This document shows, in pieces, positions 273-39,429 of a stretch of 39,567 nucleotides of DNA. Within the stretch, counting starts at the first letter, position 1. Each line of letters opens with the position of its first letter. Under the pieces are notes generated by a model. That model searched no databases. It saw nothing but the letters and a program-made list of their open reading frames with translations, and had not been told where the DNA came from. Origin of the DNA: Alphaproteobacteria bacterium (GTDB lineage: Bacteria > Pseudomonadota > Alphaproteobacteria > Caulobacterales > Caulobacteraceae); the NCBI GenBank assembly GCA_018895795.1, contig JAHINZ010000243.1, positions 1 through 39,567 on the forward strand. The letters are read 5' to 3'. A program made the translations under genes and the position numbers.

Positions 273-683
273 TGATCCCACCCAGAAGCAAGGGAAGGGA
301 CGTCGGCCGGCGACCTGATGGGCTTCTGGGGGTGGTCGAGCGGGTTGAGAGGGCGGGTGACGTAAACCCGCCTATCGGGGATTGGCCAAGGTCCCCGCCC
401 GTCCGAAGGCTCGCTCCGGGTCCTCCGGAATCGATGTGGCTTGCAGCCCCAGGGCTGGGTCCGTCGCGAGGAGGCAAGATCCGGGTGGGGCATAAGGCTG
501 AAAAGGCCTGCGCGCCCCGGCCAGAGGGATAACGATCACGCGGAGCGTCTGTCTTCGTCGAAACGGTACTTACAAACTCAATATTCCGGGCGAGGCCCGG
601 ACGCTCCGCGACCCTTCCCACACCTTCAGCGGGTTTCCGCGTGAAGCGGCGCAGCCGTGTCCTTGTCCGGACACGACGGATCA
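273..683 (+). ncRNA. Candidate large structured non-coding RNA (family unknown)
   Basis: More than 10 helices, closing stem TGATCC/GGATCA, pseudoknot GGGAAGGG/CCCTTCCC, G-U wobbles favouring the + strand; no credible ORF. Confidence 0.6.
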
Positions 684-34003: not shown

Positions 34004-34184
34004 GCCCCATCTTCGCCCTCCGCGAAGGGAGCCATCCTTACATCTCACGGCGAGACGATCGCCGGACTGTAGAGGTTGCTCAAGGACGACGCCCTCGCGT
34101 CGCCGCGGAGCGGCTGGCCGCAGGCCAGTCCTTGACCAACCTCTACAGTCCGGCACGCTGCAGCCTCCAAGAGATGTAAGGATG
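34004..34184. repeat. Family-C branched palindromic element
   Basis: CATCCTTACATCTC / GAGATGTAAGGATG terminal inverted repeat plus an 18-bp inner stem. Confidence 0.85.
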
Positions 34185-34199
34185 AGCGGGACGCGAGGC

Positions 34200-34249
34200 G
34201 TCCGCTTTTTGGCAATGAGCCAAAGGCCGCTTTCGACCCAAGCGGACAT
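34200..34249. repeat. Short GTCCGC/GCGGAC hairpin repeat (family D)
   Basis: GTCCGCTT...CCGCTTTCGACCCAAGCGGAC. Confidence 0.55.
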
Positions 34250-34390
34250 AGATCCTTCTCCCCTTGCGGGAGAAGGTGTCGGCCGAAGGCTGACGGATGA
34301 GGGGTCGAAAGTCCTGTCCGGCAGGGCCGAGAGACCCCTCATCCGACCTGCTACGCAGGCCACCTTCTCCCGCAAGGGGAGAAGGGTCTA
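34249..34390. repeat. Family-A CIR-like repeat
   Basis: TAGATCCTTCTCCCCTTGCGGGAGAAGGTG / CACCTTCTCCCGCAAGGGGAGAAGGGTCTA. Confidence 0.85.
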
Positions 34391-39238: not shown

Positions 39239-39429
39239 GCCCCAGCGCAGAGCCAGCCTTACATCTCTTGGAGGCTGCAGCGTGCCGGTCTGGACAGGTT
39301 GGTCAAGGACCGGTCTTCGACCGGCCGCTCCGCGGCGGCCCGCAGGGCCGTCCTTGAGCAACCTGTCCAGACCGGCGATCGTCTCGCCGTGAGATGTAAG
39401 GATGGCTCCCCGCGGCGCGGAGGCGGGGC
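39239..39429. repeat. Family-C branched palindromic element (inverted relative to the 34004 copy)
   Basis: CCTTACATCTC / GAGATGTAAGG, inner stem GCCGGTCTGGACAGGTTG / CAACCTGTCCAGACCGGC. Confidence 0.85.

Follow-up and report, generated by a model that had tools for sequence, protein, structure and literature searches.

Few large bacterial RNAs have a conserved tertiary fold, and many of those that do have turned out to be ribozymes or the RNA component of programmable nucleases. The HEARO/OMEGA RNAs (IscB, IsrB, and TnpB; IS200/IS605) are pseudoknotted and multicopy, often lack an ORF, and in a minority of copies lie near a small nuclease gene. We analyzed a stretch of 39,567 nt from a member of the Caulobacteraceae (GCA_018895795.1, contig JAHINZ010000243.1, positions 1 to 39,567), referred to here as the window; coordinates are those of the window, and features are on the + strand unless stated otherwise. 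An initial annotation of this DNA had proposed a structured noncoding RNA at positions 273 to 683. This region proved to be a copy of an ORF-less element that is dispersed in the genomes of Caulobacter and its relatives.

The element resembles the HEARO/OMEGA systems in that a large pseudoknotted RNA is predicted in many dispersed copies, many of them without an ORF, with a small nuclease gene near a minority of copies and the RNA flush with the element end. It differs in that no Rfam HEARO match was obtained, TnpB was found in 1 of 18 carrier genomes, and the nearby nuclease belongs to the DUF559 family. Like the palindromic repeats of the REPIN/RAYT, BIME/RIB, CGTC REP, and CIR1-4 types, it is a dispersed, nonautonomous intergenic repeat found in mosaic arrays, with an IHF site between inverted arms and a candidate mover gene between cognate palindromes. 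The known units are simple hairpins of 20 to 200 bp, however, whereas the element spans ~500 bp and combines a promoter with a covarying tertiary fold. In a review, the Caulobacter CIR1-4 repeats are described as two-armed units of ~110 bp with a conserved GANTC site (PMC2229807). Size and fold set the element apart from that description. CIR3/4 may overlap with one module of the element.

The IS110/IS1111 bridge and seek RNAs also are noncoding RNAs carried by mobile elements, REPs are the targets of some IS110 members, and one IS110 adjoins a copy of our element on contig C58. The element differs from this group in its pseudoknotted 380-nt fold, in having no guide match to its flanks, and in having no linked DEDD recombinase; both IS110 copies in the genome of the window have noncoding ends of their own. 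In size, in the coaxial stack of helices P4 and P5, in the T-loop-like hairpins of a variable domain, and in a nested double pseudoknot, the predicted RNA recalls RNase P RNA, group I and II introns, and HDV-like ribozymes, but its strand order is different, it has none of their catalytic signatures and no Rfam match, and its distribution is multicopy and patchy. OLE, GOLLD, ROOL, and raiA likewise are large, conserved, and of unknown function; here the differences are the lack of an Rfam match, the dozens of chromosomal copies with a promoter module, and the lack of copies in the phage and plasmid sequences searched. The literature searched, which included few subscription papers, held no description of the RNA class or of a link between DUF559 and palindromes. 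Nothing relevant was found in the accessible parts of two papers (PMC10085705 and PMC8987985), and a sequence search of the accessible supplement of a Caulobacter ncRNA study gave 0 matches (PMC5988900).

Copy number and distribution of the element

Profiles of the individual modules identified ~39 dispersed copies in the genome of the window (25 5' modules, 39 3' modules, and 29 left modules), and a search of the same genome gave 43 matches to the stretch (40 of 66 candidates were scored). The earlier remark that the stretch is unlike the repeats of the window holds within the window, but genome-wide the stretch is itself a repeat. A 3' module lay 178 to 241 nt behind 18 of the 25 5' modules, and each of the remaining 7 had a contig end no more than 260 nt away; for 20 of 21 lone 3' modules, a contig start was at most 227 nt away. 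Five near-complete relatives carried 42, 54, 9, 21, and 18 copies.

By BLAST, the element was found in 47 of 201 genomes of the family. With a covariance model built on the 3' module, it was detected in 36 of 150 family genomes, which cover 8 of 27 genera of Caulobacteraceae, in 1 of 120 genomes from other families of the same order (L210), and, with strict filters, in 0 of 149 other families of the class. Named records with the element were mostly Caulobacter and Brevundimonas among the matches listed. L210 represents a distant class, in which the strands of pseudoknot A (see below) are wholly different yet complementary. This class was present in 1 of 101 genomes of L210's own family, and further members accounted for 4 of 22 metagenome pattern matches, the other 18 failing the pairing or loop filter. 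Of the 119 pattern loci, 9 were excluded because they did not match the 3'-module profile. The phage and plasmid collections searched contained no element match; two viral pattern matches were dropped (5' module absent and chance-level score), and a second viral pattern gave 0 matches.

The lack of a credible ORF in the window copy extends to the family, since none of the 133 two-module loci contained an ORF of its own apart from one IS630 insertion. That insertion explains a 1.16-kb gap in one copy that we had considered as an ORF-bearing autonomous form. An IS630-family element with two overlapping frames (L090:1410-2455) is inserted at CTAG in the variable domain of a Brevundimonas copy.

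The Rfam 15 covariance models gave no match at gathering score in the window, and a relaxed scan (E of ≤10 for the window) returned chance-level matches only, here and in seven homologous loci. ARAGORN found no tRNA or tmRNA. The initial annotation had noted the lack of RNase P, tmRNA, SRP, and 6S signatures and had suggested a possible undescribed large class; the absence of an Rfam match, together with the covariation described below, makes an undescribed class of large structured RNA element with a long-range pseudoknot a well-supported reading.

Predicted RNA and its covarying core

When the region from 273 to 683 was folded against shuffled sequences, the + strand gave a z score of -3.30 (reached by 0 of 100 shuffles) and the - strand gave -1.53, in line with the strand preference proposed earlier. 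The proposed ends at 273 and 683 have to be replaced. The predicted RNA runs from ~280 to ~659 (~380 nt; z score of -2.74), with a purine at 280 in 104 of 107 copies and the alignment of copies ending at ~659. Across the family, the length between profile ends was 265 to 580 nt.

The structure was analyzed in 107 nonredundant copies. Top mutual-information pairs, ranked with no correction for phylogeny, include helix pairs, and many high-scoring nonpairing columns reflect subfamily structure. In a 29-row alignment built from BLAST hits, seven helices were 94.3% paired, with two-sided changes at 26 of 45 pairs. This result was reached by 0 of 500 shuffles, and slid controls gave 41 to 52%, a comparison biased in favor of the fold because the fold was derived from the same families.

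All 14 segments checked from the helices of the initial annotation pair fully in the window, and the central ones were borne out across copies. The 5' module (281-330) comprises P1, one strand of a pseudoknot (292-299), P3, and loop L3. P1 (281-289/322-330) is 88 to 100% paired per position, shows two-sided changes at 6 of 9 pairs, and encloses P3 (301-304/317-320 in the window copy). The long-range pairing of 292-299 with 612-619, here termed pseudoknot A, has a core (293-299/612-618) that is 92% paired, with two-sided changes at 5 of 7 pairs; a search for homologues with covariation at this very pairing had been suggested as a check, and both were found. P4 (332-338/533-539), a helix absent from the earlier list, is 99% paired with two-sided changes at 5 of 7 pairs, and it closes a variable domain (339-532). 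Stacked on P4 is P5 (540-547/602-609), the part of the previously noted 10-bp helix 539-548/601-610 in which two-sided changes were seen. P5 holds the motif CGAAACGGT (559-567), a G-poor loop (568-584), and hairpin 586-600, which also had been predicted and which shows two-sided changes among copies. Compensatory changes thus support a predicted core of P1, pseudoknot A, P3, P4, and P5.

CGAAACGGT is near-invariant across copies, BLAST-derived alignments included, with an invariance that is inflated by the search pattern used to gather copies. The loop behind it is 13 to 19 nt long, contains 2.9% G, and is unrelated to the flanks (85 copies). We considered this loop as an OMEGA- or IS110-type guide and rejected the idea, as its matches to its own flanks were no longer than those to the flanks of other copies. 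A second pseudoknot, B (313-315/565-567), is likely: its three pairs can form in 81, 97, and 100% of the 107 copies, with almost no covariation, and one extra pair is seen in subfamily B and in the distant class. Positions 564-566 alternatively could pair with 586-588. An alternative pairing of L3 (309-313 with 555-559), which was 32 to 87% paired and showed no covariation, was replaced by pseudoknot B.

Outside the core, agreement with the initial annotation was mixed. The variable domain falls into at least four classes that are swapped among copies. Helix 338-346/408-416 holds in one subfamily only (72%), and most copies pair 340-344/394-398 instead as the inner helix of the domain. The domain also contains T-loop-like hairpins at 352-372 and 495-509, the second supported by two-sided changes. 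Helix 446-451/486-491 competes with 488-490/516-518, which covaries. Helix 508-513/649-654 is not conserved (52% of cells paired), nor is hairpin 656-675, which lies past ~659. The closing stem 273-278/678-683 pairs in the window, but a perfect partner was present in only 2 of 104 copies, and its 5' half overlaps the -10 box described below. The 3' end (624-659) consists of two hairpins (624-646 and 647-657) and the right end, after which the copies stop aligning. No terminator-like site was found at the RNA 3' end.

A group I intron or IStron was rejected as an identity for the element, since the 2 nt between P5 and the 3' strand of the pseudoknot leave no room for a P7 and no Rfam match was obtained. 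A group II intron was rejected as well; domains V and VI were found neither in the derived structure (by eye) nor by Rfam. Group IIC introns insert just behind hairpins, and a compact, ribozyme-like core with near-invariant junction bases and hairpins directly upstream could point to a self-processing ribozyme or to a retro-type element that spreads through an RNA intermediate and inserts in the same way. The upstream gene is co-oriented with the element in 70 of 109 copies, which would allow read-through. We consider such an element unlikely: the derived structure contains no group I P7 or group II D5/D6, none of the 133 copies has its own ORF, and sequence upstream of the predicted start is copied along. 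A reverse transcriptase was found in 6 of 18 carrier genomes and is absent from the other 12, from the genome of the window, and from the genome with 54 copies.

The same fold could act as single-stranded DNA during transposition, as the ends of IS200/IS605 or REPINs do. Its location among REP-like palindromes and several three-base loops closed by C-G would suit this role. However, the copies show many one-sided changes of the G-U type on the + strand only, and they contain T-loop-like hairpins and long-range pseudoknots; in addition, P1 is immediately preceded by a -10 box and a purine start. These features speak against it. The Y1 HUH transposase was found in none of six carriers (0 of 1 for the genome of the window, which is 87% complete, and 0 of 5 near-complete carriers; a control C. 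vibrioides genome was positive). We therefore regard the single-stranded DNA reading as very unlikely. Y1 transposase, TnpB, and reverse transcriptase do not track the element. RRXRR was found in 0 of 18 carriers, in a search whose control gave no signal anywhere.

The family forms a natural series from minimal (~290 nt) to expanded versions with strong covariation. This series, the covariation itself, and up to 54 copies per genome in a genus with a model organism make the element directly testable. The minimal copies L034, L035, L068, and L020 are 286 to 297 nt long. In Brevundimonas copies L111, L075, and L076, the variable domain is enlarged by 150 to 200 nt of extra hairpins. Subfamily B (genome G000, contigs C60, C311, C333, C239, C474, and C364) has a larger variable domain, an ACGGTC motif behind the G-poor loop, and a second ACGGTC just before P4. 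6S RNA often is located downstream of a zapA-like gene, and copy L026 (G103), which occupies such a position, has a normal 3' part and an unrelated 5' region. In L079, the 3' module is followed by an inverted duplication of the same module at the contig end, which is probably an assembly artifact.

Predicted promoter module and neighboring genes

A left module (160-267) is conserved upstream of the copies. It comprises a palindrome (160-185), an A/T-rich, G-poor stretch, and a second inverted arm, and it contains a site at 212-224 that exactly matches WATCAANNNNTTR, the IHF consensus. With at most one mismatch, this consensus occurred upstream of 31 of 83 copies, in 28 of them at one position (±1), and downstream of 1 of 83. 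The genome of the window has 25 exact IHF sites, of which 6 lie in a left module. Next to the module is a predicted sigma70-type -10 box (268-273); among 107 copies, A269 is present in 105 and T273 in 103. The RNA likely is made from this promoter of the element's own. Sigma54-type spacing in some left modules was considered and dropped, as it is not conserved (by eye). In genome G000, a left module is directly followed by a gene on contig C444 and by a truncated RNA on contig C375; at these two places the promoter module may have been co-opted.

Metatranscriptome contigs matched the RNA region of relatives, with a depth of up to ~190 in data set X4. The profile was the same in a run whose kind is not recorded, one X4 contig reaches across the left module, and the contigs are indistinguishable from DNA. 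A sequencing-run search yielded small word shares only. In Caulobacter strain NA1000, the murI-ftsK interval is 1,082 nt long with a 351-nt hypothetical ORF; since it matches L094 (1,085 nt, with the same open frame), NA1000 likely has a copy there. The NA1000 start-site list contained nothing at the predicted starts of this copy and of a putative parE copy (12 of 20 supplements were searched), and the accessible data of two studies list no RNA or start in the murI-ftsK interval (Schrader 2014, PMC4117421; Zhou 2015, PMC4287350). According to the accessible text, the start-site map uses uniquely mapping 38-nt reads only (Zhou 2015, PMC4287350). As the first 38 nt are common to 8 of 13 copies in the C. 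vibrioides genome that holds L094, the absence of listed starts weighs little, and the same circumstance makes the element easy to miss.

The initial annotation had offered a cis-regulatory role toward the gene that follows the element in the window, an shkA-like hybrid histidine kinase (734-2293; HisKA, HATPase_c, and Response_reg domains). The element lies directly upstream of shkA here and at 5 of 29 other shkA loci, and some copies end near a co-oriented gene, so read-through may affect neighbors incidentally. A leader or riboswitch for shkA or for any gene that happens to follow is nevertheless barely plausible. A riboswitch or 5' leader would be co-oriented upstream of related genes, and we observed 74 co-oriented against 61 oppositely oriented downstream genes (simple codon-score gene calls) and unrelated neighbors; no neighbor gene was shared among 133 copies. 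Among the best 30 of 56 matches to shkA loci (two of which have <130 nt of upstream sequence), the element was present in 6, including the window, and absent from 24 of 29 relatives, and the two closest shkA orthologues lack it. A promoter block of shkA's own (694-725), with a TTGA-N7-TTAA box and a -10-like hexamer, lies outside the element, and a similar block precedes shkA orthologues with or without the element (by eye). In C. crescentus, shkA is listed as leaderless (Schrader 2014, PMC4117421, accessible part) and its transcription start is its ATG (Zhou 2015, PMC4287350, accessible part). With the element dispersed among unrelated neighbors, shkA cis-regulation is unsupported, and shkA appears to be a neighbor only. 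Many Caulobacter genomes carry differing inserted DNA between shkA and the upstream ChlI/ComM-like ATPase gene (L158 to L187), and this interval looks like an insertion hotspot.

Upstream cassettes, DUF559 genes, and likely spread of the element

Two kinds of repeat precede the window copy. Positions 1 to 32 are the tail of a ~170-bp long-hairpin repeat on the + strand, cut by the contig start and matching 39391-39427, and positions 40 to 176 hold a palindrome cassette without a gene (REP/CIR-like), an inverted repeat with the arm type seen around the DUF559 gene at L323 (by eye). Across copies, the order of modules is fixed: a long hairpin, a palindrome cassette with or without a nuclease gene, the IHF/promoter region, and the RNA. 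This long-hairpin repeat was found within 800 nt upstream and co-oriented in 22 of 134 copies and downstream in 0. Perfect hairpins of ≥9 bp occurred upstream of 72 and downstream of 20 of 125 copies, compared with 139 of 800 gene ends. An abutting upstream block was common to another copy in 14 of 25 copies of the genome of the window. At three loci of genome G095, a composite of 1.25 kb, 83 to 91% identical, runs from a long hairpin through a palindrome-DUF559-palindrome unit and the left module to the RNA, and it ends at the RNA 3' end.

In five genomes, 6 of 27 DUF559 genes lay within 1 kb upstream of a copy (distances counted by hand), 5 of them co-oriented, where ~0.2 would be expected; within 1 kb downstream, the count was 0 of 27. 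All 17 DUF559 genes that were cut out had palindromic arms on both sides (by eye). Against a tight partnership, only 6 of 144 copies adjoin a DUF559 gene, and no RNA lies near 21 of the 27 DUF559 genes. Of 201 family genomes, 166 contain DUF559, among them members of genera that lack the RNA; DUF559 presence does not track the RNA, and no DUF559 match was obtained in the RNA-carrying genome G089 (90% complete). For GIY-YIG genes the link was weaker (1 of 35 short upstream ORFs, and two genes within 1.6 kb upstream).

When 127 loci were compared with the genome of the window, 11 were syntenic and empty, and none was syntenic and filled except for 8 self hits; the rest were without an orthologue on one side (74), ran into contig ends (19), or were rearranged (15). 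We found neither a target duplication nor a clear terminal repeat. As for the hallmarks of a MITE, the ends match over at most 5 bp, imperfectly, and the empty sites are too diverged for a duplication to be read. Module identities among 10 copies of the genome of the window were weakly correlated (-0.07 to 0.49; one copy was mis-split). At the proA site, the element is present in five of six genomes, and these orthologues have swapped modules and different cassettes upstream. Divergence among these five is 1.4% for the 70-nt 3' core, 20.6% for the loop, and 20.1% for the four-fold sites of proA. Given the low divergence of the core relative to the four-fold sites, resident copies look selected, or could have been homogenized by gene conversion.

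We put about even weight on the following explanation: the element would be a large two-domain RNA with an IHF-assisted promoter that forms the right-hand module of a cassette copied as DNA, with a palindrome-flanked DUF559 nuclease as the probable protein partner. The two pseudoknots would hold the 5' module against the conserved junction at CGAAACGGT. Copying at the DNA level is suggested by the promoter and cassettes, which lie upstream of the predicted start and travel along, and by the 12 of 18 carriers that have no reverse transcriptase. Nuclease cuts at the palindromes might start copy-in repair or transposition, template switching would explain the mosaic modules, and the RNA might act as a scaffold in a nuclease RNP through which the element is spread or retained. 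The window copy would then be a gene-less derivative served in trans. A Vsr-like nuclease is not known to have strand-transfer activity, which counts against DUF559 as a mobility partner, and clustering of cassettes and RNA could also come from shared, tolerant landing sites.

A more specific version of this explanation gives the RNA an active part in movement: it would bind the 113-amino-acid DUF559 nuclease, and read-through at its 3' end would guide the RNP to cut empty sites, so that the cassette is copied or retained. The lack of a terminator and an RNA end flush with the element would let read-through serve as a locus-specific guide. This version is improbable in our view; if true, it would amount to an OMEGA-like logic achieved through an unrelated fold and nuclease family, unnoticed in C. 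crescentus.

It is also possible, although we are doubtful, that the copies are a host-useful family of trans-acting RNAs (a protein sponge or RNP scaffold) amplified by hitchhiking on palindrome cassettes and without a role in spread. The low divergence of the proA-site core, which gene conversion could mimic, and a -10 box kept in nearly every copy would agree with this. Conservation across species and a likeness of only 90 to 93% between copies within one genome are as compatible with a host function as with recent selfish spread. The copy number of 1 to 54, the complete relatives without the element, sites that come and go, and the strict polarity relative to mobile-looking cassettes argue in the other direction.

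The upstream repeats have features of their own. CGTC REPs are reported to have no dedicated transposase (PMC3733652). The DUF559 genes, flanked as they are by cognate palindromes, are a candidate mover for such alphaproteobacterial palindromic repeats. The arrangement of DUF559 genes and palindromes is RAYT/REPIN-like with a different class of enzyme. Among DUF559 (Vsr-like) genes L308 to L324 (G188, G064, G095, G163, and G120), each subfamily has a different family of palindrome arms, and three DUF559 copies of G163 score identically. Gene-less doublets of DUF559-type arms are abundant, with examples in the window at 40-176 and 34249-34390. An IS110-family element on contig C58 of G000 (L189:760-1890), with a 5' noncoding region of its own, is divergently oriented and adjoins a palindrome cassette and an RNA copy. 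The long-hairpin repeat occurs in the window at 39243-39423, 34016-34183, and 1-32 (z score of -8.9), with 15 matches to its tail in the genome, and a second long-hairpin subfamily lies upstream of the copies on C60 and C234. A conserved closing stem and internal loops surround a hairpin whose length varies, and the repeat may be a structured RNA in its own right or the end of an element.
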